The position numbers were made by a program, and so were the translations under genes. 30,107 bases of DNA, taken from positions 1-30,107 of the IMG/VR virus record IMGVR_UViG_2698536535_000005. One strand, given 5' to 3'. Below, piece by piece: positions 7,644-29,051 of this stretch. A model generated the notes under the pieces. That model saw only the letters and a list, made by a program, of their open reading frames with translations. It was not told where the DNA came from and did not search any database. The DNA is from a virus (lineage: Duplodnaviria; Heunggongvirae; Uroviricota; Caudoviricetes). The first letter of the stretch is position 1. Every line of letters begins with the position of its first letter.

Positions 7644-9445
7644 AAAACGCACCGAGTCTAAAATATCAGCCGAAGGATAAATTCACTGAGGTAATCATTT
7701 TTGCCGGGACGGATGCTTACGCCCATGCTCAACACTGGATTGAAAGTGAAGGACGAAAACACGGCGATAACGTGCCTCCTGTTTACCTGGGGCCAAAGCA
7801 ACTGGCAGACCTGGCGAATATCCGCATTATTGACGAGAAACGCCGTTTTGCGCGTGTCTATATCGCGGGGGAGATAGAGCCAATCCAGATCAATACTATC
7901 GCTGAAAAGCTGGCGCTGGCTGGCGTACAGGAGGCGAAATTATACAAAGGTATCACCGACCAGGAACCGGAGAACTGGCGCGACTACCTGCAACGGATCC
8001 GCGAACAGGCTGAGCACGGGGAAGTTTCAGTGATGAAATTAGCTACAAAAAATAGTGGTCTACCCAAGCCTGCATTAAATCAGATGGGAGCCAGCCAGAG
8101 AGGGGAAGTGTTACTTGAACATTATGGAGGAGCACTGGCGATAAATGATGATTCTGATGTAGTTCACCATTACAACGGAATTGTTTGGGAGCCTGTATCT
8201 GATAAGGAACTCCAGCGGTCTATGGCGAAGATTTTTATTGATGCCGAAATTAGTTATTCGCAAAACGCCATTAAATTTGCCGTAGAGACAATGAAATTGA
8301 GTCTACCTGTTATGGGGGGAGCGGACAGAAATCTTATTGGGTTCAGTAACGGTGTTTTTGATATCAGGACAGGAAATTTTCGGGAACACAACAAAAATGA
8401 CTGGTTGTTAAATGCCAGTGAATTACCGTTCAGCCCGCCAGAAGAGGGGGAAACGCTGGCAACACATGCGCCGAATTTCTGGAAGTGGTTGCGTCGTTCG
8501 GTGGCGGATAATGCTCGTAAAGCGGATCGCGTACTGGCGGCATTATTCATGGTACTGGCGAACCGGTACGACTGGCAGTTATTCCTTGAGGTAACGGGGC
8601 CGGGCGGAAGCGGTAAAAGTGTGATGGCGGAGATTTGTACCATGCTGGCGGGTAAGGCCAACACAGTATCGGCAAGCATGAAGGCTCTGGAAGACGCAAG
8701 GGAACGCGCGTTAGTAGTTGGCTTTTCGCTGATTATCATGCCGGATATGACTCGCTACGCTGGCGATGGTGCAGGAATTAAGGCAATTACTGGCGGCGAC
8801 AAGGTGGCAATTGATCCGAAACATAAAGCCCCCTACTCCACACGTATTCCGGCAGTAGTGCTTGCGGTAAACAATAACGCCATGTCATTCAGTGACCGAA
8901 GCGGGGGGATCTCGCGTCGTAGGGTGATATTTAATTTCTCTGAGGTCGTACCGGAGAACGAACGCGATCCCATGCTGGCGGAAAAGATAGAAGGCGAACT
9001 GGCGGTAGTGATTCGCCATTTGCTAACACGATTTACCGACCAGGACGAAGCTAAAAGACTACTTTATGAGCAGCAAAAATCAGAAGAAGCGCTGTTGATA
9101 AAGCGCGAAGGTGATTCACTGGTGGACTTTTGCGGCTATCTGATGTCGTTGGTTAAATGTGAAGGAATGATGGTGGGCAATGCGGAAATAGTGCCATTTA
9201 GCCCGAGGCGATACCTGTATCATGCTTATTTAGCCTATATGTCAGCGCATGGCCTGGGAAAACCAGTATCACTGACACGCTTTGGTACTGATATGCCAGG
9301 AGCTATGGCGGAATACGGAAAGGAGTATAAGCGGGCTAAATGCACTAAAGGCCCGGATAAAGGGCGAGTGATAACAAATGTTCTGTTAGATGATGATGCT
9401 GATGGCTGGTTGCCAGCAGCTACAGGGATTAACGACAGAACATAA
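7640..9445 (+). CDS. P4-family phage/plasmid primase-helicase (C-terminal P-loop NTPase domain)
   Basis: 601-aa ORF, GTG start after GGGAGG; Walker A VTGPGGSGKS and downstream Walker-B-like hydrophobic-DM stretch; overall resemblance to P4 alpha C-terminal / pri-rep proteins of satellites; iteron array immediately downstream. Confidence 0.75.
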   Translation: MKNAPSLKYQPKDKFTEVIIFAGTDAYAHAQHWIESEGRKHGDNVPPVYLGPKQLADLANIRIIDEKRRFARVYIAGEIEPIQINTIAEKLALAGVQEAKLYKGITDQEPENWRDYLQRIREQAEHGEVSVMKLATKNSGLPKPALNQMGASQRGEVLLEHYGGALAINDDSDVVHHYNGIVWEPVSDKELQRSMAKIFIDAEISYSQNAIKFAVETMKLSLPVMGGADRNLIGFSNGVFDIRTGNFREHNKNDWLLNASELPFSPPEEGETLATHAPNFWKWLRRSVADNARKADRVLAALFMVLANRYDWQLFLEVTGPGGSGKSVMAEICTMLAGKANTVSASMKALEDARERALVVGFSLIIMPDMTRYAGDGAGIKAITGGDKVAIDPKHKAPYSTRIPAVVLAVNNNAMSFSDRSGGISRRRVIFNFSEVVPENERDPMLAEKIEGELAVVIRHLLTRFTDQDEAKRLLYEQQKSEEALLIKREGDSLVDFCGYLMSLVKCEGMMVGNAEIVPFSPRRYLYHAYLAYMSAHGLGKPVSLTRFGTDMPGAMAEYGKEYKRAKCTKGPDKGRVITNVLLDDDADGWLPAATGINDRT

Positions 9446-9472: not shown

Positions 9473-9811
9473 GGTAGACGGTTGGTAGACAGATTCACTT
9501 AACCCTCTACCAACCATCTACCAATTAATATTTTGAATTATAAAGATATTTTCAATGTGGTAGAGAGGTAGACAGTTATTTCTATATTCCTAAACCACGG
9601 GGGGTATATAAAAAACAGATAGTTAAGGGGGTATTTTTTAAATTTCTCTTTTAACTGTCTACACTGTCTACCATTTAGTAAAAATCATTAATTATCAATG
9701 TATTAATGCGGTAGACCGTTGGTAGACAGTTTGCAGATTGTTTTTTTGTTATGTGTTAATAACATTAAATAAATCAATCAATTATATCGGTAGACAGTTG
9801 GTAGACAGTTG
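9473..9811. repeat. iteron array, putative replication origin of the element
   Basis: At least ten copies of GGTAGAC(AGTT) in both orientations (e.g. 9473, 9484, 9567, 9708, 9721, 9788, 9800; inverted at 9504, 9515, 9655, 9664) interspersed with AT-rich stretches, directly 3' of the primase gene. Confidence 0.7.
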
Positions 9812-9816: not shown

Positions 9817-10359
9817 ATGGGGCAAAGCATGACTAAGCTGACCATTAACAGAAAACCAAAAGGTATTTACGGCACGCCACAGAAAACGACGCAGGCGGCA
9901 CAGGAGCAGGATAAAACCACATCGGCGCATAAAGTGATGCCCGGTAACCAGAAAGCGCAGCAGAAGCCTACAGGGGCGACACCGTGGCGGCATATGACCA
10001 AACGCCAGCGCAAAAACCGCAGGCGCGTTAACCGCCTCACTGAGTTGTGGCCTGACTTATTCAGCCGGGAAGCACTGAAGCCGCTTAAGGTGGGGATATT
10101 CGACGACCTGATGCAGGATCTCGCCGTCAGGGGGCTGGCATTCGGGCCAGGGGCATTGCGTGCGACGCTGGCATCTTATGCGCAGTGTCCGCGCTATTAC
10201 CGCGCCTTAATGGCTGGTGGGGTACGCTACGACCTGAAAGGCCAGCCGTGCGGCGAGGTGACACCACAGGAACAACAGGACGCAGAAACGCGGCTGGTGG
10301 CGCTGAATGAGAAGCGCAAACGCCAGCGCCGGGCAGCAAAGGAGACAATAGGCGCATGA
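9817..10359 (+). CDS. FinO/ProQ-family RNA-binding protein
   Basis: Central region ALKPLKVGIFDDLMQDL...LRATLASYAQCPRYYRALMAGGVRYDLKGQPCGEVTPQE aligns by eye with the E. coli ProQ N-terminal FinO domain (PLKIGIF, LR.AL..Y, RY, R.DL.G.PCGE). Confidence 0.6.
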   Translation: MGQSMTKLTINRKPKGIYGTPQKTTQAAQEQDKTTSAHKVMPGNQKAQQKPTGATPWRHMTKRQRKNRRRVNRLTELWPDLFSREALKPLKVGIFDDLMQDLAVRGLAFGPGALRATLASYAQCPRYYRALMAGGVRYDLKGQPCGEVTPQEQQDAETRLVALNEKRKRQRRAAKETIGA

Positions 10360-10643
10360 TTCACGACAGCAAAGCGGAAGCACTGGAAGCGCGTGGTCTG
10401 TACCGGAGAGCGGCGGCGCGGTGGGCTGAGGTCATCATGCTGGCGAATGATGACAAGGCACGGGAACAGGCGGCAAAACGTCGCGCGGAATGTATCCACA
10501 AGGCAGCATGCCCACCAGCAAGGCAGGATAATTTCGGGGAGATGCGCGAAACCATCAGCCGGGCACATGCCGGGATGGGATTACATCAGCCCAATGGTGA
10601 GGCATTCAGGAAATACCAAAAAAAGAACAATTGTAGTCAGTAA
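10356..10643 (+). CDS. PerC-like small transcriptional regulator (tentative)
   Basis: 95-aa ORF with AAGGAG Shine-Dalgarno; N-terminus MIHDSKAEALEARGLYRRAAARWAEV resembles the PerC/Pch family N-terminal pattern as I recall it. Confidence 0.4.
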   Translation: MIHDSKAEALEARGLYRRAAARWAEVIMLANDDKAREQAAKRRAECIHKAACPPARQDNFGEMRETISRAHAGMGLHQPNGEAFRKYQKKNNCSQ

Positions 10644-10777
10644 CAGAGGATGGGATTCTCTTGGTTTTTTGTTGATGCTTTCTGAGGAAATCTACTACGT
10701 TGCTGAGCAGATGAATATTCAATTGCATCTGGGTTCCTGATAAGATTAATCTGAATATTTTCATTTGGAATAGGGAT

Positions 10778-11920
10778 ATGAATAAAACTTTAATTGCAAC
10801 ATTAGTCGGTATAGTAATGTTAACCGGATGTGGGCCAGAAGAGTTAACTCCAGAACAGAAACAGGAAGTAGCGGCTCTTAAAGCTGAACTGTCGCAAACG
10901 GAAGGTGAAATATCAGCAGCTAAGGAAGTTGACCAGCAGTTTTCTGGTGGGTTGATAAAAAATCTGACAACAGCAAGACTGGAAATATTAGGAACTAATA
11001 AAGCGCTTTTGGAACAGCGTATTAATGCTATTGAATCAGGTGCCAAAATTGATGTTGTTGTATCTGGAGTAAAACCTGATCCTGAGCTTGCGGCTTCAAT
11101 TAAAACTGAAATTGACAGCTTAGATGCAAAAATCAACGAAGCCAAAGCTGATGCTCGTCAGTATAGTGGTGGTCTGATAAAGGTACTAAAATTATCTACT
11201 GTTGCCACTGAAGAGCAGACCATGGCAATGTTGCAGCAAAAGTACCTCACAGCCAAGTATGGCCTCGCTGAAGTTAAGCTGGCATCAGTACAAGCTAATG
11301 ACGCAAAAAACAGTACTGAAACGGAAGTAACAGCCAAAAATTCCCAAGAGCAACTTCCTTTACTCCCGCCAGCGGATGGTCCGTTTGGCTTAGAAGCCGG
11401 TCTTACACAGAAAAACATCGAAGATATGATCGGTGCTAAGCTCAAGCCACTACCAGACAGTGTGAATCTGTATACTTCTGATAAATTACCGAAGCAAAAC
11501 GCAGATTTTGAAATGTATGGTTTGCTGATCTCCCCGAAAGCTGGTTTATGTCAAATACGGGCTTTAGGAAAAAATATTGATACTGATAGCTATGGATTGG
11601 CTCTTAAATCCAAGTTTGAAGAATTGAGTAATTCTTTAAGTTCTCTGTATGGAAAGGCTGATACTACAGACTTTTTGCTGGCTGGTTCAATTTGGAAAGA
11701 TCCTCAGGACTGGATGAGGGGGCTAAACAAAAAAGAACGCTTCTTATCTGCCACATGGAAGGGAACAAAAGAAATACCATTAAAAAACAATATCGATACT
11801 ATCTCTATTGAGGCCAGAGCGAACAATTCCACTCAGGGATATGTCTATCTGCAGTACTCATTTACAAATGACGAAATTTGTCAGGCAGAAATTGAAGGGG
11901 CGAAAAAAAGTTCCCTTTAA
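10778..11920 (+). CDS. lipoprotein with coiled-coil region and internal repeat
   Basis: Signal peptide MNKTLIATLVGIVMLTGC with LTGC lipobox; repeated motif QFSGGLIKNL / QYSGGLIKVL; AT-rich; intrinsic terminator directly downstream. Confidence 0.7.
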   Translation: MNKTLIATLVGIVMLTGCGPEELTPEQKQEVAALKAELSQTEGEISAAKEVDQQFSGGLIKNLTTARLEILGTNKALLEQRINAIESGAKIDVVVSGVKPDPELAASIKTEIDSLDAKINEAKADARQYSGGLIKVLKLSTVATEEQTMAMLQQKYLTAKYGLAEVKLASVQANDAKNSTETEVTAKNSQEQLPLLPPADGPFGLEAGLTQKNIEDMIGAKLKPLPDSVNLYTSDKLPKQNADFEMYGLLISPKAGLCQIRALGKNIDTDSYGLALKSKFEELSNSLSSLYGKADTTDFLLAGSIWKDPQDWMRGLNKKERFLSATWKGTKEIPLKNNIDTISIEARANNSTQGYVYLQYSFTNDEICQAEIEGAKKSSL

Positions 11921-11931
11921 ACAATCCGTGC

Positions 11932-11960
11932 AAAGCCCCTTAGTAAGGGGCTTTTATATA
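11932..11960 (+). terminator. intrinsic terminator
   Basis: Perfect inverted repeat AAAGCCCCTTA/TAAGGGGCTTT (11932..11954) followed by a T-rich tail. Confidence 0.55.
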
Positions 11961-11984
11961 TTAATGTTCAACGGGGGGGATTAG

Positions 11985-12308
11985 ATGAAAGATAATCTAG
12001 AAAAACTAATTGAAAATACTTTAAAAGATATTCTATTAGCTAATGCTGCTCTAACATTCATTTTTGCAATACCAATGGCTATTATCAGTAGGCATGGGAT
12101 GGGTATCACAATCTGGTTTATAACTGTGCTCATTGCACCTGCTCTGTGTGCAGTAGGTGCATGGCTTGTATCTCGAACATTCGGTCATGCTGAGGAGTTC
12201 TTTCATCGTCGGTGGGCTAAGCGAATCTATGTTTTTTATACTCTTGCGGCTGCCGAGTTTTTGCTTGTGTACTCAATCGCGCAAATAATGAAAAATCTGA
12301 TGAAATAA
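11985..12308 (+). CDS. small integral membrane protein
   Basis: 107-aa ORF with two or three long hydrophobic segments (ALTFIFAIPMAIIS, ITIWFITVLIAPALCAVGAWLV, IYVFYTLAAAEFLLVYSI); G-rich Shine-Dalgarno. Confidence 0.5.
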   Translation: MKDNLEKLIENTLKDILLANAALTFIFAIPMAIISRHGMGITIWFITVLIAPALCAVGAWLVSRTFGHAEEFFHRRWAKRIYVFYTLAAAEFLLVYSIAQIMKNLMK

Positions 12309-12711
12309 TTAACAAGTTATTATCATGGGGTTTGTGGCTGTTAACCTGCAGTGAGGCGACAATCGTGTATTTATAAAAACTTCCCCTTTTCACTCCCCGC
12401 TGTTTCTTCTGCTATTTCCTTTATGTTTGCATGCAGCAACATCTACCATACCTTTGCAGAAAAATCAGAGCATTTAGTGCCGAAGGTTGGTTTATTGATG
12501 CTTTTTGTTTCATTTATTGCAATTATTGTCATTCAGAAGGGATCATCATGAAAAATCACGGAGTAAAGCCAGTTTTACTTTCCCGGGGGCAGATCGAAGC
12601 CCTGTAACGTATCCAGGCCGAAAAGCGTCAGAAATCTGTGCTTGGTGTGGCACCGTCGATTCATGTTATTGCCCGGCAACTGATGGATAAGGCACTTAAA
12701 GAGGTGAGGCT

Positions 12712-12984
12712 GTGAAATTAAATATCAGTGTGGATAAACGCCAGCTATGGCAGAAAAAAGAGAACAGCGAGGCATTCAGGGCTTTGCTGGTGGAAAATCT
12801 TCGGCACCGGTTCAGTGGAGAGTTGCCTGATGCACTGGGGAAGAAACTGGAATCCCTGACGGTGGAAATTGGCGATTATGGCTTTGTTGATGTTGAAAGC
12901 ACGACTGCCAACACAGAAATCGTAAAGCAGGTCGTCAATGATGTAATGAAAACCACGCTTAGCCAGCCATCCTGGCGCAACTGA
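12712..12984 (+). CDS. hypothetical protein
   Basis: 90-aa ORF with GTG start after GAGGTGAGG; no recognisable motif. Confidence 0.35.
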   Translation: MKLNISVDKRQLWQKKENSEAFRALLVENLRHRFSGELPDALGKKLESLTVEIGDYGFVDVESTTANTEIVKQVVNDVMKTTLSQPSWRN

Positions 12985-13083
12985 ATCAGTAAGGGGCGGT
13001 TATTGCCCCTTTCCTCCATACCCACAACGCATTCCCTTTTCGCATGAAATTATTTTTTATCGTATATGCATGAGGTGAGTTAC

Positions 13084-13608
13084 ATGTTGATGAGTAAAGC
13101 CGAATACGCCAAATACAAAGGCGTAAGCCGCCAGACAGTTTACGACTGGATCGAGAAAGGCGAAGTGATCATGTCTGGCAAAAAAATTGATGTGGAGGCG
13201 ACAGAGCAGCGGAACAGCCCACCGGCACAGGGGAAAGACACCGTTTCTGAAATGTGGCCAGAAAGAACGCTGGAAATGACGTGGGGCGAGTTCTGGAAAG
13301 CAGTTAAGGCCAGAGACGGTAAAATCCCTGCGCCAGTAACGGACGACGACATACAGCAACGTGTGCTGGATGCAGCCGGGGAATTAGACTGGGAAGTGCA
13401 ATTTCTTGATGATGGCGGGATTTGGATGGATGACGGCGATGCTGAGTTTTATTTCGAGCAATATGATCTCAGGCAGAATGCCGAACTGGTGATTGGTACG
13501 CTGCGACGTGAGGTCTGTTATGTGGCTGATGCTTGTCCTGACGAGCTGGATAACTGGAGCGAAGCCGGACTAAACGCCCTGGCTGCATGGGAAAAAACAG
13601 GTCATTAA
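13084..13608 (+). CDS. HTH DNA-binding protein with acidic C-terminal domain (possible small-terminase-like or regulatory protein)
   Basis: Start taken at the ATG preceded by GAGGTGA (track ORF starts 13066); N-terminal MSKAEYAKYKGVSRQTVYDWIEKGEV is a phage-type helix-turn-helix; repeat array immediately downstream. Confidence 0.55.
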   Translation: MLMSKAEYAKYKGVSRQTVYDWIEKGEVIMSGKKIDVEATEQRNSPPAQGKDTVSEMWPERTLEMTWGEFWKAVKARDGKIPAPVTDDDIQQRVLDAAGELDWEVQFLDDGGIWMDDGDAEFYFEQYDLRQNAELVIGTLRREVCYVADACPDELDNWSEAGLNALAAWEKTGH

Positions 13609-13615
13609 CGGCCGC

Positions 13616-13821
13616 AAAAAGTGTCAAGTTGAGCAGCTTGCCAGGTTGGCACTTTACACTCTGAACACGAAAAAGTGTCAACCTCGCTGTAAACCCTGCC
13701 ATTACTGGCCTTGAGCCATATTTACCACGCCAGAAACCCGTGAAAACCGCGAAAAGTGTCAAGTTGTCATGCTTAGAAATGCCAGGGTTTTTCGCGAAAA
13801 AGTGTCAAGTGTGTCAACCTG
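13616..13821. repeat. array of AAAAGTGTCAA boxes (putative protein-binding sites)
   Basis: Five GTGTCAA cores at 13621, 13675, 13756, 13803 and 13811, most preceded by an A-run, between the HTH gene and the next small ORF. Confidence 0.6.
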
Positions 13822-13850
13822 CGATATTAAGATTTCCTAAGGTGTAAACC

Positions 13851-14045
13851 ATGACCATCACCGAAGCCGATTTGCTGGATATAGTGCGCAGCGTGGCTGG
13901 AATTAGCGAATTGCCAAAGAAAGCCAGATTTGCCGATTATGCGGACGTGGTAGCTGCTGCAATGCAGCTAGAAGATCATGCTCCGAATGAAGGAGATTTG
14001 CTGCATATCCGCATCCGATCGGCGGCGATACTGGCAGCCCGTTGA
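13851..14045 (+). CDS. small hypothetical protein
   Basis: 64-aa ORF; weak support only. Confidence 0.3.
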   Translation: MTITEADLLDIVRSVAGISELPKKARFADYADVVAAAMQLEDHAPNEGDLLHIRIRSAAILAAR

Positions 14046-14399
14046 CGCCACCAGCATAGAGAGAACGCCGTGCCTTACGAGTGGAAGAAACCGGACATGC
14101 TGCGGCGATAACCCGTTGATTAAAAGACGGCTCAAAATTGAGCCGGGTAGCAGTTTGTCTGATTTATGCGTTTAGTTGTTGATATTGCCGATGACGAAAA
14201 ATTGCACTCTGTAGCTAGTGGGCGTTTATGTTGAAAACTGCCGATTCTGATAGGCTTTTATCATGCACTTGCATGAAAACTGCTCTGTGTAGCGGGCAGG
14301 CCTGCTGGGGAGAGCATTGCGCGCTTTAGTAGCAATAAAACACATCAATAAGGCTTTTTATTTTCTTGTATTATAAAATTATACTTATTATCTTGTTGA

Positions 14400-14429
14400 T
14401 TGACAGATAAAAACAAGGGATATGCATAA
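14400..14429 (+). promoter_or_regulatory. candidate sigma70 promoter for the 14433..16852 operon
   Basis: TTGACA (14400..14405), 18-bp spacer, CATAAT (14424..14429); so close to the ATG that either the transcript is near-leaderless or another promoter is used. Confidence 0.25.
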
Positions 14430-14432: not shown

Positions 14433-15122
14433 ATGAACAAATCACCTACTGAGATAATTAATATGCTAAGCGATAAGTTCAATAGTAACTTTCGTGAATG
14501 GCAGGGCATACAAGATAAAAAATTAGATAAAGTAATTATCTCAATTTTCACTCTTAACACGATTGCTGAAATTTTGAATAAAAAGAAAACATCAGTTCAT
14601 CATGATGTTTGTATTAAAATTTTTAGTGAGATTATTGCTGATACGTCATCTTCTTTATATCTTTCTGCCTGTGCCATAGATAAACCAGCTAATATTGTTC
14701 TAAGGAGAGTTTTGGAACTAGGTGTCGCATCTATTTATCTTTGGGATATGCCTCATGTTGTATATTCTTGGAAAAATCATGATGAAGACTTAAGTTTCAG
14801 TGATATGTTGAAGCATATAACAAATCAAGGCTATATAGACTACTTCACAGAAAATGAGAAGATAGGAGGGAAAGTATGTGTTATTGATATGAGAAGAGCA
14901 CAGAAAATTTATGGACAATTAAGTGATATCGTTCATGGAAAAATAACCTCATTTGAAACTGATTTGCCTAATAAGTTCACTTTTGAAAGTGAAGATTGGG
15001 AGAGGTTCATAGGTCTGGCTGAGGTTGTTTTGGGTATGATAATTAATTCCAATATTGTTCGTCATAAGATAAGAAAAGAAGTGCTATCTTCATTTCCTAA
15101 ATCTAGTGAGGTAGTTTTATAA
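14433..15122 (+). CDS. hypothetical protein, component A of candidate two-gene system
   Basis: 229-aa ORF, strongly AT-rich; stop overlaps the start of the downstream ATPase gene (TAATG); no recognisable catalytic motif. Confidence 0.7.
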   Translation: MNKSPTEIINMLSDKFNSNFREWQGIQDKKLDKVIISIFTLNTIAEILNKKKTSVHHDVCIKIFSEIIADTSSSLYLSACAIDKPANIVLRRVLELGVASIYLWDMPHVVYSWKNHDEDLSFSDMLKHITNQGYIDYFTENEKIGGKVCVIDMRRAQKIYGQLSDIVHGKITSFETDLPNKFTFESEDWERFIGLAEVVLGMIINSNIVRHKIRKEVLSSFPKSSEVVL

Positions 15123-16852
15123 TGTCTATGTTAGACACTGAGTTATTACATGCAGCACGTACCGAAGATCTTGAGTTGAAACAGGTCAAACAACTGGCTG
15201 TTCTTGGTGAGTTTGAAAAAGATGTTGTAGCAAAACTAAAAATAGCGGGCTCTCATCTGATTCAGGGTGCCAGAGGAATTGGAAAGTCTATGCTTCTAAG
15301 AGCGGCAGAAGCTGAATTAGATAGTGATTTTCCTGTTAAAAAGATTGTGGGGGTATATGTTAATTTCAAAACCAGTACTTTGCTGGAAGGGGTTAAAGCT
15401 GACAATAAAAATGCATTTCAGATATGGGTAAGCGCTAAGTTACTACAAGCTTTGTACGAAAAGTTGATATTTTTAGATGTCATTCGTGACAATAATAGCA
15501 GTGATCCATTTCAAAGAATTTTTGGGATTAAAACTATAACTGGAATGAAAGATGCTCTACAATCTAAAATTCATCTGCTTCAAAGGTTATCAAGAGATCC
15601 TTCTTCAGATAAATTGTTGAATGAAATTGGAGAGGATTTTTTAGATAAGGTTAATGATATAAGTTATGTAAATGACATCATCAAGGAGATAATTCAAGAA
15701 TACCAACTTAATAGAATTGTTTTTTTATTTGATGAGGCTGCTCATACCTTTATACCAGAACAGCAGGAAATATTCTTCGAAATATTTAAATTGCTTCATG
15801 GCGGTAAAATTGCAGTTAAGGCGGCTGTATATCCGTCAATTACATCGTATGGTAAAAATTTTGAAGTTGGTCAAGATGCCATGATGATAAACCTCGGAGG
15901 ATACGAAACTGGAAATATTGGGCGGGAACGAACACGACGTTTATATCGTGATCTATTAGATAAACGGGTCACACAAGGAGCAGCAAAAAAGAGAATATTG
16001 GCTAAAGGTGATTTGCTAGATCAATGTATTCATCTTTCATCCGGAAACCCTAGAGCATTTCTCCATTTATTTAATAAAGTATATGAGAAAGGTTATACTG
16101 AAAGAGATCTTTTAACTTGCACTCAGGATTATGTCAATCAAGAATTATTACCTTATCATTTAGGGCTTTCAAAACGATTACCTAAGTATTCTCACCATGT
16201 TCGCATTGGACTTGATATTCTTAGGGAGTGTATTATCCCTGAGCTTAGATTGAAAAATAACAGAGAGAAAAAGACTCAAACCCAATCTGCTTTTTTTGTT
16301 CTTCCTCCCGTTATTTCTCCAAATCTTAGATTGTCTCTAGATTTGCTTTGTTATTCTGGTGTTCTTTCCAAGCAAGGGTCCGTGAAGATGTCTAATCGAA
16401 AATCGGGTCAGCGCTACATGGTTAATTTATCATTACTTTTCACTGAAAAAGCATTCGTATCTAATAAGTTCGGGGAGATAATAACACTATTATCTCTCGC
16501 TGATTATAAAGAATTTGGCGCAGCAGATTCTGAATTAGAGCGTTTTTTAGAAAAATTGAAAGAATCAGCTGATGAGTGTCAAACTTGTTCCGCTGAGTTA
16601 CCTGGAGATGCGAAGTTTTGTCCTAAGTGTGGGACACCTGTACCAACAAGGTCAATTGTAGGACAACTTCTTGATGATCCGGTTAGTTGCTTGTCAATTA
16701 GTAACGCAATATGCGACCGAATAAAAGAAACCTATCCTAAAGTGGGTGATATCGTTCACTGTTCGAGGGATGATCTGAAAAAAATACCGTACATTAAAAA
16801 TGTTAGGTCAAAAATAATCAAGAACGCAGCGGATGAATATATCTCAGGCTAA
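15122..16852 (+). CDS. Orc1/Cdc6-like AAA+ ATPase with C-terminal zinc ribbon and HhH (RNA polymerase alpha-CTD-like) domain, component B
   Basis: 576-aa ORF; Walker A GARGIGKS, Walker B IVFLFDEAAH, sensor-2-like SGNPRAF; C-terminal CQTC-x11-CPKC zinc ribbon; last ~60 aa resemble the RpoA alpha-CTD; GAGG Shine-Dalgarno; terminator downstream. Confidence 0.8.
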   Translation: MSMLDTELLHAARTEDLELKQVKQLAVLGEFEKDVVAKLKIAGSHLIQGARGIGKSMLLRAAEAELDSDFPVKKIVGVYVNFKTSTLLEGVKADNKNAFQIWVSAKLLQALYEKLIFLDVIRDNNSSDPFQRIFGIKTITGMKDALQSKIHLLQRLSRDPSSDKLLNEIGEDFLDKVNDISYVNDIIKEIIQEYQLNRIVFLFDEAAHTFIPEQQEIFFEIFKLLHGGKIAVKAAVYPSITSYGKNFEVGQDAMMINLGGYETGNIGRERTRRLYRDLLDKRVTQGAAKKRILAKGDLLDQCIHLSSGNPRAFLHLFNKVYEKGYTERDLLTCTQDYVNQELLPYHLGLSKRLPKYSHHVRIGLDILRECIIPELRLKNNREKKTQTQSAFFVLPPVISPNLRLSLDLLCYSGVLSKQGSVKMSNRKSGQRYMVNLSLLFTEKAFVSNKFGEIITLLSLADYKEFGAADSELERFLEKLKESADECQTCSAELPGDAKFCPKCGTPVPTRSIVGQLLDDPVSCLSISNAICDRIKETYPKVGDIVHCSRDDLKKIPYIKNVRSKIIKNAADEYISG

Positions 16853-16859
16853 AGAAAAG

Positions 16860-16883
16860 CCCCATGTAAATGGGGTTTTTTTT
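16860..16883 (+). terminator. intrinsic terminator
   Basis: CCCCAT-GTAA-ATGGGG hairpin (6-bp stem, 4-nt loop) followed by T8, 8 nt after the ATPase stop codon. Confidence 0.8.
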
Positions 16884-16892
16884 AATATGGGT

Positions 16893-17284
16893 TTATACTT
16901 TTAATGCCCGCCAATGCATTAATTCAATTCTTTGTATTAAATAATTAGATCTATTATAAGCTCTTCTGACTTCATTTCTATCAATATGAGATAATGACGT
17001 CTCTATTGCATCTGAATTAAACCCTGCTTCATTTAAAGTTTTACTCGCAATAGAACGCATCCCATGGTAACTAGCTTTCCACCGTAACCAATTCATTTAA
17101 GAGCAGCATTAGCCGTTTGACTATTCATTGGTTGCATAGGATCGTTTCTGCTAGGGAATACATATTCTCGATGACTACTAATAGGTTTCATCACATCCAG
17201 AAATTCTAATGCCTGTGGAAATAAATGAGCAATGTGTTTCCGGTTAGCCTTCATCCGTTCGGTGGGAATTGCGGAGGGCAGCAT
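16893..17284 (-). pseudogene. integrase remnant (C-terminal part of a P4-type tyrosine recombinase, frameshifted and 5'-truncated)
   Basis: Two adjacent minus-strand ORFs (16893..17096, 17093..17284) together align with the C-terminal ~130 aa of the integrase at 1611..2825 (FPSRNDP vs FPGRNDP; HIDRNEVRRAYNRSNYL vs HVDKNSIRGTYNHAQYL); no N-terminal half is present. Confidence 0.7.
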
Positions 17285-17680
17285 AAATGCAGAGGGAAAT
17301 CTGCAAATCCTAGGCTGGCCTTGCCATAAAGCGAAGACGGCGCGGGAGCATACAAGATGATAATTATTATTAGTAACAAAGGGGAGGGCGGGTCAAATCT
17401 CTGTACCCCTAGCTGTTCTGGACCGCCTGCCTCGTCAAATTTTTACACCCGCAAAATTAAAAAAAATACTTCACGCTGGTGGTTATCCTTGGGCATCCAC
17501 TAGCCTTTCATCATTGACTGCTGGTGAGGCTGAGACTCGAAGAAAAAGAGTGCTAGAGAGTCGGTTTTTGCACAGTTTGGGGTAAGGGAAAATTTATTGG
17601 GGGTACATTTGGGGGTATATATAAAAATGCAATGTAAAAATGTCATTAAATATCAATGCGATTGTTGTTTGTGTTTTGTT

Positions 17681-17696
17681 CCTATTATCGCACCAT
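17681..17696. repeat. attR core: degenerate direct repeat of the thrW 3' end
   Basis: CCTATTATCGCACCAT matches tRNA positions 1429..1445 (CCTATTATCGGCACCAT) except for one deleted G. Confidence 0.6.
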
Positions 17697-18302
17697 CAAG
17701 AAAATCAATAACTTAGCTTAACTTCTCTAAGAAATTGTATCTTCTGTTATCACTTACAAACGCCTATACGTTGTTATGGGCTTTGGTAGTGTAACACGTA
17801 TGGGCGAGTAGTTCCCAGGCTCAACCTCGTAACAAGTTCCTTTGAAGCTGGAAGACGTGCCACCGTCTCTAAACCTTCTACCAAAACTCTTAGCAAGATG
17901 TTCCACACCTGGCGCGGTGTCCAATGATGCTACACGTCGAGATGACGTCGCAGAGGATAAACAGGCTAAATGATGGGAAGAGTTTTAAGTGCAATAGTGG
18001 ATTAAAGCCCACCTCTTCAAAACCTAACTTGATCGGGAAAGAATCAAGCTCTAGCACGGTTTCGTCCACCGGAGTACAACGGGTGCCTGATAAGAGAAGA
18101 ACTGCTAAGACTTCATAGCTTTTGTGAAAAAGCCCTTTTTAGTGGATATGCCTACGGCGCTTATTTTTTGGTATAACCATCAAAGGCGCTTTATGGCTCC
18201 TATTGTCTTGAAAATGTATCTTTACTTGTATTGTGTTTTATGCGTAGTCTCCCTGTGTAGTATGTAACTTGTTAATTTTCATATGAATACAGAGGCAACA
18301 CG

Positions 18303-18455
18303 ATGAAAAACATTGCAGCTATAAAACGTAATAACCGCAAGATTCACGCTCGTAAGTTCCTGTCTACGCCAGAGGGAAAAGCCTGGCTAGAGCGTAAACA
18401 GCGAGAGAACGAAGAAAGAAAACTCCTTAGTGAGTTGAAATGGCTTAAGGATTGA
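18303..18455 (+). CDS. small basic hypothetical protein (50 aa)
   Basis: MKNIAAIKRNNRKIHARKFLSTPEGKAWLERKQRENEERKLLSELKWLKD; AGAGG Shine-Dalgarno 8 nt upstream; below the ORF-track cutoff. Confidence 0.25.
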   Translation: MKNIAAIKRNNRKIHARKFLSTPEGKAWLERKQRENEERKLLSELKWLKD

Positions 18456-19005
18456 ATCACCAGTAGGCGCATAACACATCCAGCAATCAAAGATGTGTTT
18501 GTGCGCCTGATAGTGAAATTATTAAAGTTTTTTAGTTAATGTAGCCATTGCATGAACGATGATCGCTAGTGAATCGATTTTATCTCGAGGGGTAAAATAG
18601 ATGAGGTATATGATGGTAACAATTACAGCTAAAGTAATTGTGGTTCTGCAGGTTTTTAAAATGGATAAGATAAAGCGCATAGATACCCCCTATTGATTTA
18701 ACAACAACAAGGTATCATTTATTTTTTATTGCATGCAATGTGCAAATTTTCACATATAATAGCTTACTATTCACTTTGCATGGTGTCAACAAGATGATGT
18801 GTTGTTTTGTTTGATTTGTTCAAGATAATATTTCATTTTCTCATCTATATAACTTGTGTTTTAGATAATTTCACTAATTGTAAAAGTTACGTATTGCTTA
18901 ATAGCTGCCTTTTTATCTGAAATCGGCGCAAACGTGATCAATGTTTAACGCGAAGATCAGCGGCGTCAGGTCCACGCAGCGACAATTCTCAAATATCAGG
19001 AGGCA

Positions 19006-19563
19006 TTACGCTTCCTGCTCTTTCTTGATACGTTGCACCGTCTGTGTGCTGACACTGAAATCTTTTGCTACGCTCCGAATTGATCCACCATTCGCGAGAG
19101 CGGCAACAATTCCCGCTCGATCAATTGCTTTTCCATTACCACGTTTTGCTATACGTCCAGCGGCCTTAGCTGCGGCAATCCCCTCACGTTGCCGCTCAAG
19201 CATCATTTCACGTTCCATTTGTGCCACTGCTGCAAGCACTGTGAGCATCATATTCCCTGCGGGAGAGTTCTTCCCTGTCTTAAAGTCTTCTTTATGGAAA
19301 TGCACAGACACGCCGCGCTCTGTTAATTGCTCAACCGTTGCCAGTAGGTCGGCTGTATTACGGCAAAGTCGATCAATGCTGTGAACATGCAAAACATCAC
19401 CTTCACGCACATAGTTCATCATTGCCTCAAACTGTGGGCGCTGGGTATTCTTGCCTGACGCTTTATCTTCAAAGACTTTATCAAGAGTTACTCCAGCTAA
19501 TTGACGGTCTGTGTTTTGTTGGACAGTCGATACCCTAATGTATCCAATATTAGCCATTTTCAT
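19006..19563 (-). CDS. serine recombinase (resolvase/invertase family)
   Basis: 185-aa protein; N-terminal catalytic motif GYIRVSTVQQNTDRQ with the nucleophilic Ser; small-recombinase length with C-terminal HTH-like region (GGSIRSVAKDFSVSTQTVQRI). Confidence 0.85.
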   Translation of the reverse strand: MKMANIGYIRVSTVQQNTDRQLAGVTLDKVFEDKASGKNTQRPQFEAMMNYVREGDVLHVHSIDRLCRNTADLLATVEQLTERGVSVHFHKEDFKTGKNSPAGNMMLTVLAAVAQMEREMMLERQREGIAAAKAAGRIAKRGNGKAIDRAGIVAALANGGSIRSVAKDFSVSTQTVQRIKKEQEA

Positions 19564-19584
19564 TTTCCTTCTGTGTTGATTTGT

Positions 19585-19688
19585 GTGTAGTGATTATTGA
19601 TCGTGTTGATTAGGTGTGTAAAGGACTTTTTTCACTACGAAATTCGAAGGTTTTTAGTGTGGTGATTTAGCCTGCTTTATCACTACAC
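19585..19688. promoter_or_regulatory. putative res/recombination site upstream of the serine recombinase
   Basis: Four related half-sites: GTGTAGTGA (19585..19593), TCACTAC (19632..19638, inverted), GTGTGGTGA (19657..19665), TCACTACAC (19680..19688, inverted). Confidence 0.4.
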
Positions 19689-20085
19689 GTCTTGCATGAG
19701 AATCATGTAGTTATGTTTTGGTAAAATTAGCAAGCTATTAAATAGCGTGTTTATTTTGAAAAAATTAATTTTTTCAACACGTGAAAGGAACTTGTTCGAC
19801 AAATAATAGATTGATTTTTAATCAACAATTTCTGATAGTGCTCTGTAAGCCACATTACACAAGGCGCAGCGAAAGTGATGTAAAAGTGAAGAAAGCTAAC
19901 ATTGCACTTTTAAGCTACTTTTCATTGAATTTTTAGTATGGAATTACATAGGGATTAATCATCAATTAATCTTGAATTTAAGCCTGTTTTAGATGTTTAA
20001 TTTTTGATAGCAAGAAACACTTTTAGAAGATCATTGCACAGATGTTATGTGATAAATGGATGTAACGGTAGGTCACTGTGAACTA

Positions 20086-20222
20086 CCCCCCACAGAATTC
20101 TGTTATCCTTAACTTTTAAAGAAATATGCACCCTAACAGAAAACTGTTACCCCAACCCTAACAGAATTATGTTAGACACCCCCACAGAAAACTGTTAGCC
20201 ACCCCTACAGAATTTTGTTACC
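20086..20222. repeat. five palindrome-containing iterons (consensus about CCCYAACAGAAWWCTGTTA)
   Basis: Units at about 20086, 20129, 20154, 20180 and 20203; the last four tandem with a ~24-bp period; each contains ACAGAAnnCTGT-type inverted repeat (ACAGAATTCTGT is a perfect palindrome). Confidence 0.7.
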
Positions 20223-20909
20223 TATTAGATCAACTATCAAACTACAATTAAATTATCTTTTATAAATTCTTTTATCTTTAAAGAATAATTATAGGGATAC
20301 CCGTTAGGGGAGTCTTCGACTATCCCTTAATCTATTGGCATTCGCCAGAACCTTGCACAAGTTAGAGTGTTAGTCGTTAGACTGCTTGTCATAACACATA
20401 GTTTTTTGTTTGTTGATGTTAGTTAGTAGATCTATGTTCGCTAATGCCGCTCACAACGAATATGTAATCTACTATGTGCAAATAGCCTACGGCTTGCGTA
20501 AGGCTAAATAGTCTTGCGCTGTGCGCAGAACGATAATTAACTAACTACCATCTAACGATCATCAATCTATTTAAGAGAAAATCTATTGTGCAATACTCTG
20601 ACGAGTGCAATAACCTTGTGTGCTACGCGTTAGCGATGTTAGCACATAGACACAGACAACAACCAACAACAAACAAAAAAGAATGGTTTTAGTAGTTGAA
20701 GGTTAAATAAGATTCTACCGCTTAAATCAAGCCGTAGGCGAGCTAAACAGCCATTACATAAGGGAATGTATTGTTTTTATCAAAACCTCGTTAGAACGCG
20801 TTTTAGAGCGTTTTAGACAATAATAAAGAATAGCACTACACATGAGAGCACGAATTGCTAAGAAATATCATAACTTACTGAAAATCATCAATATTTATAT
20901 GGATAGGGG

Positions 20910-20938
20910 TTGACAAAAGCTTTTAGTCGTGGTAAAGT
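20910..20938 (+). promoter_or_regulatory. candidate sigma70 promoter for the rightward small-gene operon
   Basis: TTGACA (20910..20915), 17-bp spacer, TAAAGT (20933..20938), about 120 nt upstream of the 21059 ATG, which has an AGGAGG Shine-Dalgarno. Confidence 0.4.
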
Positions 20939-21058
20939 AATATTAGGGACAGAAAACATTCTTATCCTCTAAGTAATTAAACCAATGCACCGCACTTTGA
21001 AGCCCAAGGCTTGCAAGGTGTCTTTTTCTTTTAACCAAATAGAATAGGAGGTTAATTA

Positions 21059-21259
21059 ATGAAGTATTACACTCCACAGGATGTAATCGAAGCCTGGAAA
21101 CGTGGTGAGATCAATCGTTTTAAAGTAAGGATGAACAGGAACACAGCGCGACGCTGTGGTTATCCAGAGCGTGAAAAATGCTTTGACGATGCACTAAAAA
21201 TTATTGATGAATTAAGAAAAAATGAAAAAGGATCTGAAAAAGAATCTGAAACAGAGTAA
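21059..21259 (+). CDS. small hypothetical protein
   Basis: 66-aa ORF with perfect AGGAGG Shine-Dalgarno. Confidence 0.5.
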   Translation: MKYYTPQDVIEAWKRGEINRFKVRMNRNTARRCGYPEREKCFDDALKIIDELRKNEKGSEKESETE

Positions 21260-21278
21260 AGAAGAGAAGGAGAAAACT

Positions 21279-21449
21279 ATGAGCGAAACTACAGAAAAGA
21301 AAAGACAACCACGCACTTGCTTTCATATTCCTGATGAAGTATTTCAGGTGTTGTTTAAAGAAGCCAGAAGTAAACGTATCACTGTTACAGATTACATTCT
21401 TGATATGTTGAAAAGAGAGGCTGAAACACTCTCAAACAAAAGCAAGTGA
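21279..21449 (+). CDS. ribbon-helix-helix-like small DNA-binding protein (tentative)
   Basis: Start taken at the ATG preceded by AAGGAG (track ORF starts 21222 and overlaps the upstream gene); segment RTCFHIPDEVFQVLFKEARSKRITVTDYILDMLKRE fits the RHH strand-helix-helix pattern. Confidence 0.45.
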   Translation: MSETTEKKRQPRTCFHIPDEVFQVLFKEARSKRITVTDYILDMLKREAETLSNKSK

Positions 21450-21502
21450 TTTTTATCACCATAGTAGCGCCGTAGAGCGTGATTACATCAAGGAGATTTT
21501 TA

Positions 21503-22072
21503 ATGATTAATGAAGAACAATTTGTAAAAGTTCCTATGTGGATTCTAAAAATAAGCCAAGTAAACGGGCATAAATTTACAGATAGTGCTAAAAACCTTTA
21601 CTGCTATTTGAGAGGGTTTGATCGTGCATTTCCCTCTTACGCTAAGATAGGCGATGTTTTTGGCATAACACCAAGAGCAGCAGAAGAAAGGGTTAAGAAA
21701 TTGCTCGAAATGGGATTAATTATAAAAGATGCACGACCAGGAAGCTCTAACCTTTATCGAGTGCTTGATATTCCAAAAGGAGAATCATCACTACCTGATC
21801 CTTCTGAGAAAGAAGACGAATCTAATGAAATATTGAATGTTTCCGAAATCATCGTTGAAGAAGAAACACAGGAATCAGAGTTCCCTGAGCGGCCCGAAAT
21901 TTTTACTTGGCTTCTTTCCCTTGATAAGAAGAAACCACCGCACGAAGAAACAGAAGATTTTGTAAAACGTGCATTAGATTCAAAGAATATCTATCTTGAG
22001 AAACAGGCTTTTCACGATCTGATAATATCTCTAAGAGAAAAAAGTGAAATATACGATTCAATACCATTCTAA
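21503..22072 (+). CDS. winged-helix/HTH protein with acidic C-terminal region (possible replication initiator or regulator)
   Basis: Start at the ATG preceded by AGGAG (track ORF starts 21479); N-terminal PMWILK...NLYCYLRGF...IGDVFGITPRAAEERVKKLLEMGLI is HTH-like; acidic tail. Confidence 0.5.
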   Translation: MINEEQFVKVPMWILKISQVNGHKFTDSAKNLYCYLRGFDRAFPSYAKIGDVFGITPRAAEERVKKLLEMGLIIKDARPGSSNLYRVLDIPKGESSLPDPSEKEDESNEILNVSEIIVEEETQESEFPERPEIFTWLLSLDKKKPPHEETEDFVKRALDSKNIYLEKQAFHDLIISLREKSEIYDSIPF

Positions 22073-22081
22073 GGAGAATAA

Positions 22082-22351
22082 ATGACTTATAACATCACTA
22101 TAGGAAACAAAACTATTGAAATAACTGAAAGCGGATACAACATTTTAAAAGCTATTTTGGACATAGAGTTCTCACCCCCGACAGTGGTTAGCTTTTGTAG
22201 TTTAGGCGGCTACAGCGCACAACATGTGAATCATTGGTTAAACCATTTTACATCGTTCGGTGTGCTGGATTATGAAGGGATTAACCACACTACATTTCGT
22301 CTTTTGAAATTAAACAAAGATTTTGAATTGTTTATCACAAACAATCAATAA
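22082..22351 (+). CDS. hypothetical protein
   Basis: 89-aa ORF with AAGGAG Shine-Dalgarno. Confidence 0.5.
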   Translation: MTYNITIGNKTIEITESGYNILKAILDIEFSPPTVVSFCSLGGYSAQHVNHWLNHFTSFGVLDYEGINHTTFRLLKLNKDFELFITNNQ

Positions 22352-22447
22352 CAACAGATCGGGCAATACATATGGCAAATGCATTTATGGCGATATTCAT
22401 CGTAACAATGGTATCAAGTTTTTATAATCCACATAAAAAGAAGGAAA

Positions 22448-22831
22448 ATGGGAAGAAAGAAAAAGAACAACTTAAAACGTATTGAAAAAAACAGTAACTT
22501 CAATTCAACAAGACAACGTCCACCGACACACACCAATAACGAAATTCCAGGGGAAGAGATAATATTTATTCTTGAAACAGAATCCCCTGAATTAAGCGAT
22601 GAAGAACAAGAAATAATCAAATCAATGCCAGGCGTTTACTTTCGCCCAAGAACAAGAAAACAAACAATAATTTCTGATGGCACTCTGAAACGTTGGCAGC
22701 TTTTAGGGTTTAGCTCCTATCATCATTTTTTGGGATTTAACGCTTTCAATAATTGTGTAGGTGGTGCATCGGAAGTCGATCTGATGGCTCATTTAGAAGA
22801 TACATTAGCTTCTAACAAACGCTCTAACTAA
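22448..22831 (+). CDS. hypothetical protein
   Basis: 127-aa ORF with AAGGAA Shine-Dalgarno; basic N-terminus. Confidence 0.5.
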   Translation: MGRKKKNNLKRIEKNSNFNSTRQRPPTHTNNEIPGEEIIFILETESPELSDEEQEIIKSMPGVYFRPRTRKQTIISDGTLKRWQLLGFSSYHHFLGFNAFNNCVGGASEVDLMAHLEDTLASNKRSN

Positions 22832-22846
22832 TAAAAGGATGGTCGT

Positions 22847-23092
22847 ATGTATAAGCGCCCAATGAAAATATTCGAAAAAGGAAAAATAATGATTGGCTAT
22901 ATTCAAGAAACACAATTATTTCAGATGATCCTGTCTGATGCAAAAAACTATGCTGAGTTAATCCGACTGGCAAAAGAAACAGAAGACTACGAAGCATTAG
23001 AGCGTTATCGTGATGAAGTGCTGACGCTCAAGACACCTTTTAACATCGTATTGAATATGATTAATGATGCATTACAAGGAGAAGCCGCATAA
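22847..23092 (+). CDS. hypothetical protein
   Basis: 81-aa ORF with AAGGA Shine-Dalgarno. Confidence 0.45.
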   Translation: MYKRPMKIFEKGKIMIGYIQETQLFQMILSDAKNYAELIRLAKETEDYEALERYRDEVLTLKTPFNIVLNMINDALQGEAA

Positions 23093-23403
23093 TGGAAGAA
23101 GATATTAGCAATGCAATGGAACAACTTTTAGATCTGACTATCTCACTACAAACAAGAATAAATCAAGCCTATTCAGATTTATGCGATTACACGCTCTCTC
23201 AATGCGTTATTAGCTTAATGAAGGTGAATGTAAGCCTTGACGATTTTATCTCTCTGGTGAGCGATTTAGAGCTAATTGAGGACGATGCCAAGATGTGCAC
23301 TCAAACCATCACAGACACCGCCAGCACGTTAAAGGCTGCAAGTGAAGAGATTCAGCAATTAGTAGATGATTTAGCAAAAAGTGCTATTCCCTCTAAATGG
23401 TAA
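23092..23403 (+). CDS. hypothetical acidic helical protein
   Basis: 103-aa ORF; start overlaps the previous stop (TAATG). Confidence 0.45.
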   Translation: MEEDISNAMEQLLDLTISLQTRINQAYSDLCDYTLSQCVISLMKVNVSLDDFISLVSDLELIEDDAKMCTQTITDTASTLKAASEEIQQLVDDLAKSAIPSKW

Positions 23404-24391: not shown

Positions 24392-24601
24392 ATGAAACAA
24401 GAAATTATCCTGAAATATGGCAATGAAAAGTTAACACTAACTGAAGATGTGTTGAATGCTACAGCCTACGCGCTTGGTATCACTCCCACAGAATTAAAGA
24501 AACAGTGTGAACGTCTTTATAAGGCTGAAAGCAATAAACCATCTCACCAAGATTTGATTAATGCTAAAGCTCAACAAATCAAACAATCTAAGGAAAAATA
24601 A
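24392..24601 (+). CDS. small hypothetical protein
   Basis: 69-aa ORF; stop overlaps the start of the next gene. Confidence 0.4.
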   Translation: MKQEIILKYGNEKLTLTEDVLNATAYALGITPTELKKQCERLYKAESNKPSHQDLINAKAQQIKQSKEK

Positions 24602-24975: not shown

Positions 24976-24991
24976 GAAGGAATAAATAATA

Positions 24992-29044: not shown

Positions 29045-29051
29045 ATTACGT

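Follow-up and report, generated by a model that had tools for sequence, protein, structure and literature searches.

What is the function of the two AT-rich genes, referred to here as gene A and gene B, that lie side by side in the cargo region of a satellite-like island of Escherichia coli? They are found in the IMG/VR virus record IMGVR_UViG_2698536535_000005 (Caudoviricetes), positions 1 to 30,107 of which, a stretch of 30,107 nucleotides (nt) that we call the window, cover the E. coli proA-thrW region followed by an integrated island. An initial annotation of the window had described the pair as a candidate undescribed defence system, with a protein of 229 amino acids (aa) as the possible effector (gene A) and an Orc1/Cdc6-like AAA+ ATPase as its partner (gene B). 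Judging from sequence and structure comparisons, the pair is probably an anti-phage system. This reading is based on its position in a defence hotspot, on the mean log-odds of 9.56 (against a cutoff of 4) assigned to gene B by DefensePredictor (Science 2026), and on the logic of its domains. The two genes would constitute a self-contained, horizontally mobile anti-phage module that travels as cargo of satellite defence hotspots.

On the evidence of their conservation, A and B are real genes and not chance open reading frames (ORFs), because gene B has hundreds of homologues and gene A at least 78, with length and gene order conserved. The stop codon of gene A overlaps the start codon of gene B in a TAATG, which was read directly from the sequence and is accompanied by a GAGG ∼ 11 nt 5' of the gene B start, as befits the translationally coupled unit described initially. 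The AT-richness that had been noted by eye is also genuine: the G+C content is 0.31–0.37 in the region of the pair (14501–17000) vs 0.42–0.61 in the preceding 4 kb (10001–14000), the island core as such having 45–50%. The unit ends in a strong intrinsic terminator, a 6-bp G+C-rich hairpin followed by eight T residues, likewise read directly from the sequence; an automated scan reports this hairpin on the minus strand only. As for the promoter-like element claimed upstream of gene A, there is a perfect −35 hexamer (TTGACA, 14400–14405), but no acceptable −10 hexamer was found at a spacing of 16–18 nt from it and a consensus scan of that stretch returned no plus-strand promoter, so this part of the description is weak.

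Linkage of the two genes extends far beyond E. coli. When a single genome was scanned for each of 100,044 species, 19 loci with gene B were found, distributed among many bacterial phyla and one Methanophagales archaeon, and in all 19 a match to the gene A profile was located directly upstream of gene B on the same strand. The same arrangement is seen in loci from Paenibacillus, Desulfobacter and Vibrio, as well as in a firmicute subfamily (B 26–28% and A 24–30% identical to the E. coli proteins) where the two genes overlap by 4 nt; a homologue of A directly precedes B at every locus examined, down to ∼ 26% identity of gene B. The identities of A and B to the window proteins are closely correlated (r=0.96), and the genes that flank the pair vary between genomes. 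The distribution of the pair is sporadic. It is present in 4 of the 5,426 complete E. coli genomes, strain WWCOL-236 encodes identical proteins (NZ_CP178552.1, 1142057–1144707), gene B was not found in 50,697 phage genomes, and the copies of gene B on plasmids are distant homologues only. Some pairs stand between housekeeping genes, at non-mobile chromosomal sites. In Bacillus velezensis and Lysinibacillus (loci L030 and L032), the pair is found in the same chromosomal neighbourhood, downstream of yyzF and rlmH (the latter encoding a SPOUT methyltransferase), which suggests that this neighbourhood is a variable region in the two genera.

The product of gene B, which is 100% identical to WP_061352522.1, matches the Pfam family PF24389 ('ORC-CDC6-like') over residues 38–286 with a score of 51.7 bits (E 7.8e-14; gathering cutoff 27 bits). 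The match covers only the N-terminal ATPase half of the protein (profile positions 28–309 of 571). In UniRef the family goes by the name 'ORC-CDC6 family AAA ATPase' and is assigned to all listed homologues of gene B, and its profile is also matched above the cutoff by the gene B relatives from Bacillus, the archaeon and plasmids. The three motifs that had been pointed out in gene B, GARGIGKS (Walker A), IVFLFDEAAH (Walker B) and SGNPRAF (sensor 2), are all present, and their key residues proved to be invariant among 42 homologues. The protein displays the GxxGxGK[ST] and hhhhDE signatures and the sensor-2 arginine of AAA+ ATPases, with K55, D204, E205 and R311 conserved throughout.

In a Foldseek comparison of an AlphaFold2 (AF2) model with solved structures, the top match of gene B was the RADAR ATPase RdrA (8hr8; E 4.4e-4, template modelling (TM) score ∼ 0.3), and the next best were ORC4, Cdc6, archaeal Orc1 and clamp loaders (2qby, 2v1u, 1w5t and ORC4 at E ∼ 1e-3). 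The TM scores with Orc1/Cdc6 proteins, 0.3–0.45, were obtained with a model whose predicted local distance difference test (pLDDT) is 63 and whose winged-helix region (residues 355–473) is unresolved. A Pfam scan revealed no Cdc6_C- or ORC-specific family, no DUF499, and no nuclease or other enzymatic domain besides the ATPase, and a search of PHROGs returned zinc-ribbon noise only. Together with the PF24389 match, the Foldseek results support an Orc1/Cdc6-type AAA+ fold, and gene B is predicted to encode an active AAA+ ATPase of the ORC/Cdc6 clade. Membership in PF24389 is uninformative with respect to function, since no mention of this family was found in the literature searched.

Other parts of gene B include an extra helical insert of ∼ 115 aa, a probable C-terminal winged helix, a zinc ribbon (residues 486–507) and a helix-hairpin-helix tail resembling the C-terminal domain (CTD) of the RNA polymerase alpha subunit. 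All four cysteines of the zinc ribbon are invariant among the 42 homologues; the Bacillus subfamily of gene B is devoid of this ribbon. The tail of the Bacillus orthologue matches RNA_pol_A_CTD (E 0.003) and HHH_5, and that of the E. coli protein aligns weakly (E 0.009) with the C-terminal domain of RpoA. The extreme C-terminus, EYISG (residues 572–576; 16835–16849), is retained in the Bacillus protein at an overall identity of 28%; it may serve for docking or regulation. Gene B proteins are 55–70% identical across Proteobacteria, Nitrospirae, Campylobacterota, Spirochaetes and Paenibacillus (55% between E. coli and Paenibacillus), and the protein is still recognizable in an archaeon.

The profile search for gene A among 1.84 billion representative sequences recovered 230 relatives, all of them stand-alone proteins of ∼ 230 aa and none fused to another domain. 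The only Pfam family reached by the relatives is DUF5677, to which 12 of 51 showed sub-threshold similarity (best E 6.8e-5); DUF5677 has been found to be enriched beside serine recombinases in defence contexts. Foldseek of gene A against solved structures gave no significant E-value, and the matches with the highest probability (0.94–0.69) are all HEPN proteins. Searches of PDB with the gene A family alignments, at the sequence and profile levels, produced nothing informative, and an hhalign comparison of the family with the MAE_28990 HEPN nuclease was insignificant. In an alignment of 51 sequences of the wide family, there is no variation at R91, Y160 or H168, and position 161 is occupied by Arg in 36 sequences, so that the wider family has an R-x6-H arrangement, which is compatible with the Rx4-6H motif of HEPN domains. 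Gene A retains ∼ 20 invariant polar or aromatic residues, H168, K170 and R91 among them. We refer to gene A as HEPN-like and withhold the label of HEPN RNase, because Gly replaces the Arg at position 161, the E-values from Foldseek are not significant and the similarity to DUF5677 is sub-threshold. The earlier statement that gene A has no recognizable catalytic motif holds for the Arg of Rx4-6H, which is missing from this protein, but leaves out its resemblance to HEPN proteins and the R-x6-H of the wider family.

The genomic setting points to defence. The host island has the layout of a phage-inducible chromosomal island (PICI)-type satellite, and its core is common to 167 E. coli genomes up to position ∼ 13840, beyond which the cargo differs; the pair, a variable cargo, is absent from 163 of these 167 related islands. 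In the same slot, one sister island (L010) carries PARIS (AriA, 3e-43; AriB, 4e-22), whereas another has a methyltransferase, an NsnA-like DUF262 protein (1e-55) and an MAE_28990 HEPN nuclease, that is, a restriction-modification-like module. Elsewhere, the pair is located in P4-like satellites of three genera, where it is bounded by the integrase on one side and on the other by Psu in Citrobacter freundii (83% identical; order Psu-pair-int, L036) or by Ogr/Delta in both Serratia marcescens (82%) and a third contig, which is Enterobacterales-like (78%) (order Ogr/Delta-pair-int, L035 and L037), with an alpha-type primase encoded in L035 and L036. In these loci the pair lies between psu/cos and int, and the cos-adjacent psu-int hotspot of P4 has been shown to be a reservoir of anti-phage systems (Rousset 2022). 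According to a March 2026 preprint, 6 of 8 randomly chosen uncharacterized loci from the P4 hotspot protected against phage. The cargo position proposed at the outset is thus corroborated both in the sister islands and in P4-like satellites.

The pair occurs in two unrelated satellite types, and the window itself appears to record a passage between them. The pair is preceded by a P2/P4-type cos-like block and followed by a remnant of a P4-like integrase, which shows 71–79% aa identity to residues 269–388 of the integrase that follows the pair in the Citrobacter satellite. Because both sequences have homologues on either side of the pair in the P4-like satellites of Citrobacter and Serratia, the cargo module was probably imported from a P4-like hotspot into the PICI-type island; such a transfer of cargo together with cos and int pieces bears on the exchange of immunity among satellites. 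In a third sister island, from E. coli O169:H41 (L008 8405–10012), the same slot encodes two uncharacterized proteins of 275 and 259 aa, which have no match in PADLOC and represent a further candidate defence pair.

No named defence family accounts for the pair, as had been suspected from the start. In PADLOC-DB v2.0, gene A has no match and the best E-value of gene B is 0.009, which is not significant; the RdrA and RdrB models remained unmatched, and no deaminase is present beside the pair. In NCBIfam r20, which includes the DS models, gene A again has no match and gene B reaches only 27 bits with DS41_1 (cutoff 370) and 25 bits with Sll1717 (cutoff 75). Compared by description, the pair is unlike the new P4 systems Crouga, Bandua, Aernus, Toga, Reve and Hailong. 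We found no description of the pair in the literature on PF24389, on PF18928/DUF5677, or on ORC-CDC6 or Cdc6 in connection with HEPN or phage defence, and did not find it in the supplements of Rousset 2022. The epithet 'undescribed' is nevertheless slightly weakened, because Table S10 of DefensePredictor already contains this very gene B protein as a 'Predicted novel defense gene', outside the tested units. Its sole link to known defence there is a P-loop match over 21.7% of the query. In that study, 45% of the tested transcription units were validated, and the rate climbed with the score.

Distant relatives of gene B have other partners. Homologues at 24–27% identity, found on plasmids, have a different operon layout; PF24389 is retained, as is the zinc ribbon, whose relative position is unchanged. 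In the Cupriavidus and Rhizobium loci, a gene for an N6 DNA methyltransferase lies upstream of the B homologue and a gene for a protein of 282 or 349 aa downstream; in Limimaricola, a 274-aa partner is encoded downstream. Homology links the three downstream partners, all of which have an invariant R-H-x-x-V-H (R-x4-H) and one of which weakly matches HEPN_RiboL-PSP. Since the hhalign comparison of these partners with the gene A family was insignificant, we do not claim that the two families are homologous. An ORC/Cdc6-like ATPase chassis that is combined with alternative HEPN-type partners, and sometimes with a methyltransferase, is a modular pattern typical of defence systems, and the methyltransferase-linked plasmid operons may represent a second system, linked to methylation, that makes use of the same ATPase. 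The exchange of an upstream A-type partner for a downstream RiboL-PSP-like one provides a natural experiment on the rewiring of a single ATPase chassis.

In the mechanism that we favour, gene B would act as sensor and switch. Its C-terminal modules (winged helix, zinc ribbon and helix-hairpin-helix tail) would bind to nucleic acid, with phage DNA that is invading or being replicated as the most likely target, and the protein with its bound nucleic acid would then oligomerize in an ATP-dependent manner. Gene A, whose stoichiometry would be fixed via translational coupling, would be a HEPN-fold effector that, once licensed by B, cleaves RNA and so aborts the infection. Catalysis by the A proteins of the E. 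coli clade would have to rely on other invariant residues, namely R91, H168 and K170; alternatively, A would be a non-catalytic partner in this clade. Whereas the anatomy of the genes, the conserved ATPase motifs, the strict linkage of A and B, the location in a hotspot and the resemblance of A to HEPN folds are observations, we infer the sensing of DNA, the activation of A by B, the RNase activity and the abortive outcome, and give the full chain, from nucleic acid sensing by B to an RNase that aborts infection, somewhat less than an even chance. In a Desulfobacter-like metagenome contig (L006 81–2674), an insertion sequence (IS) encoding a DUF4277 transposase splits A and leaves B intact, and the same species has an intact pair elsewhere (L005); this observation fits with A being the costly component.

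Several results weigh against such a scheme. Gene A itself scores only 16.3 bits with DUF5677 (PF18928; E 0.011), below the cutoff of 27.1, and in Pfam scans neither gene A nor any of its 51 relatives matched a HEPN family. The Arg of the HEPN motif is absent from the whole close E. coli clade, and a DUF5677 gene that was assayed alone in Enterococcus faecalis was outside the active candidates. The structural model of gene B is of moderate quality. With a mean column identity of 73% among the 42 homologues, gene B is conserved to a degree unusually high for an immune sensor, on average 19 points more than gene A. Finally, outside satellites the neighbourhoods of the pair consist mostly of housekeeping genes, with defence genes appearing only occasionally.

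The main alternative, favoured by the lack of the Arg and by the higher rate at which gene A evolves, is a defence system with the roles reversed, in which B would be the effector, an ATP-driven DNA-binding machine that blocks phage replication or transcription by loading on phage DNA or by engaging the transcription machinery via its alpha CTD-like tail, and A would be a non-catalytic adaptor, specificity factor or brake. Faster evolution would be expected of the component that contacts phage factors, gene B combines three putative nucleic-acid-binding modules with an invariant ATPase site, and the components of BREX include inactive HEPN-like and STAND-like modules (PMC12839542). We consider this arrangement unlikely, however: besides its ATPase, B has no recognizable enzymatic domain, whereas the invariant polar and aromatic residues of A look like an active site, the distant B homologues are paired with a partner that bears the canonical R-x4-H, and disruption of A by an IS is tolerated while B remains intact.

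A defensive role, whichever protein is the effector, has further to be weighed against that of a toxin-antitoxin-like module for the addiction or stabilization of mobile elements with no direct part in anti-phage immunity. The compact layout of two coupled genes on satellites and plasmids, with other toxin-antitoxin systems as neighbours in Limimaricola, the sporadic distribution, and the frequent role of HEPN proteins as toxins of such systems (5yep and 8xdj are among the fold matches of gene A) would all be in keeping with addiction. A multidomain ATPase of 576 aa would be atypical as an antitoxin, however, the hotspot occupied by the pair holds mostly anti-phage cargo where tested, the pair is also found among housekeeping genes, where there is no mobile element that it could stabilize, and the loss of A alone is tolerated; many toxin-antitoxin systems are, moreover, themselves abortive-infection defences, so that this explanation, improbable as we take it to be, overlaps with the one we prefer. 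Still less credible, to the point of being very improbable, is a role in the life cycle of the satellite, with B as an ORC/Cdc6-like initiator and A as an accessory in replication, partition or helper-phage interference: the likeness of the B fold to Orc1/Cdc6, ORC4 and clamp loaders and its DNA-binding-type domains speak for it, but the island has a primase/helicase and iterons (see below) of its own, there is no Cdc6- or ORC-specific Pfam match, gene B is missing from the phage genomes scanned, and the pair is variable cargo, absent from most related islands, and recurs in unrelated satellites and at non-mobile sites, for which reasons we rejected gene B as a replication initiator. The island's own replicon, the variability of its cargo and the occurrence of the pair outside mobile elements make both of these alternatives less likely.

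An anti-phage function being the preferred reading, a broader proposal can be formulated, albeit a tentative one that we would sooner doubt than assert. In this proposal, the pair would belong to an ancient immune family, represented in one archaeon at least and in many bacterial phyla, in which an initiator-like ATPase recognizes foreign DNA (for instance intermediates of replication or packaging or, in the branch linked to methyltransferases, DNA that lacks modification) and licenses a non-canonical HEPN effector that, in the E. coli clade, is devoid of the classical Arg. If true, this would amount to a new sensing logic and would link the proteins that recognize replication origins with immune NTPases. 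If validated, the pair would in any case be a compact two-gene addition to the defence repertoire, with an unusually conserved ATPase, and would provide a function for Pfam PF24389 and for a DUF5677-related family.

The remaining features of the window (Table 1) mainly concern the host island and its neighbour. Integration at thrW, as initially annotated, is confirmed by the recurrence of the 3' end of this tRNA gene at 17680–17696, which bounds the element and gives it a length of ∼ 16.3 kb. In an identical copy in RefSeq, the genes of the island are annotated as integrase, helix-turn-helix (HTH) regulator, AntA/AntB, Icd-like, DUF4222, DUF5906 primase, ProQ/FinO and PerC. Directly after the primase gene, an AT-rich stretch at 9473–9811 contains four GGTAGACAGTTGGTAGACAG-type iterons, which are probably the replication origin of the island; the primase gene followed by these iterons indicates that the island possesses a replicon of its own. 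The sequence CCGCAAAAAGTGTCAAGTTG occurs three times (at 13612, 13747 and 13793; window 13612–13812) directly downstream of the HTH gene, where homology with the sister islands stops. An open frame of 435 codons (5047–6354), the last ∼ 67 codons of which are the annotated Icd-like gene, overlaps two annotated small genes on the minus strand and has no Pfam match. Past attR, a second AT-rich satellite-like element (17700–30107) recurs at nearly its full length in 22 E. coli genomes; it has no known phage match except for 21462–21816 (355 nt), where the identity to phage Mt1B1_P17 is 99%. The order is different in strain WWCOL-236, in which a similar element precedes the PICI on its upstream side.

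Table 1. Coordinates of the gene pair, its motifs and other features of the window; operons of distant gene B homologues (last row) are given in the coordinates of their own loci.
Feature	Position	Strand	Remarks
Gene A	14433..15122	+	229 aa, all-helical, HEPN-like, remote relative of DUF5677; proposed effector
Gene B	15122..16852	+	576 aa, ORC-CDC6-like AAA+ ATPase, C-terminal modules of DNA-binding type; sensor/switch in the proposed mechanism
TAATG stop/start overlap of genes A and B	15120..15124	+	Direct sequence read; translational coupling
Intrinsic terminator	16860..16883	+	CCCCATgtaaATGGGG + T8
Gene A motif R91-R92-x-x-E95	14703..14717	+	Family consensus LR[SR]xLE; R91 invariant, E95 nearly so
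Gene A motif Y160-G161-x-L-S164-D-x-x-H168-G-K170	14910..14942	+	Family consensus Y-R-x-[LC]-S-x-x-V-H-G-K
Walker A GARGIGKS, gene B residues 49–56	15266..15289	+	G49, R51, G52, G54, K55, S56 invariant
Walker B IVFLFDEAAH, gene B residues 199–208	15716..15745	+	L202 through H208 invariant
Sensor-2-like SGNPRAF, gene B residues 307–313	16040..16060	+	G308, N309, P310, R311, F313 invariant
C4 zinc ribbon C486, C489, C500, C503	16577..16642	+	Pfam Zn_Ribbon_1, 27.8 bits vs cutoff 25
C-terminal helix-hairpin-helix tail, RNA polymerase alpha CTD-like	16655..16849	+	Last 65 residues of gene B
P2/P4-type cos-like block	14262..14325	+	Aligns with psu/delta-to-pair region of P4-like satellites L035–L037
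P4-like integrase 3' remnant	16896..17284	-	Frameshifted; integrase pseudogene in RefSeq
tRNA-Thr(CGT), thrW	1369–1444
attL core	1428–1445		TCCTATTATCGGCACCAT, thrW 3' end
attR core	17680..17696	+	TCCTATTATCG-CACCAT, unique match to thrW 3' end minus one base
Primase/helicase gene of island	7640–9445
Phage_cap_E major capsid gene	24992–26020		Second element; also a 613-aa ORF
Dit-like tail/baseplate gene	28294–28971		Second element
ORF at position annotated as tyrosine recombinase in close relatives	29052–30050	-	Second element
Distant gene B operons	L038 2718–6523; L039 2685–6624; L040 3872–6427

Among the characterized systems, RADAR resembles the pair in its two-gene layout, in which a ring-forming AAA+ ATPase accompanies an effector encoded separately, and RdrA is the best fold match to gene B; its partner, however, is an adenosine deaminase in place of a helical HEPN-like protein of 229 aa, and the TM score is as low as ∼ 0.3. 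In the BREX-related DUF499/BrxC-like STAND/ORC-Cdc6 ATPases that are fused to HEPN (PMC12839542), the HEPN domain is N-terminal to the ATPase, which in turn is followed by winged-helix-type DNA-binding domains, an arrangement that is matched by the A-B gene order, and the DNA methyltransferase next to some distant relatives of gene B is a further likeness. Here, in contrast, there are two separate genes, no PglZ or other BREX component and no match to DUF499. Gene B shares with the archaeal and eukaryotic Orc1/Cdc6 initiators the Walker A and Walker B motifs, the GxxRxx sensor-2 lid and probably the C-terminal winged helix, but differs from them in its context, which is not one of origins or replication, and in its ∼ 115-aa insert, zinc ribbon and alpha CTD-like tail. 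DS-41 (AAA2; NF053860), a validated system according to DefensePredictor, likewise features an E. coli P-loop protein linked to anti-phage defence and has weak N-terminal similarity to gene B; the score quoted above led us to reject gene B as a member. PARIS is similar in being a two-gene combination of ATPase and effector that occupies the same slot in a sister island, but AriA is an ABC-type ATPase and AriB a Toprim nuclease, neither of which is related in sequence to the pair. The pair is therefore outside the named defence families and yet follows a known logic, that of a nucleoside triphosphatase (NTPase) with a HEPN-like partner in a satellite hotspot.

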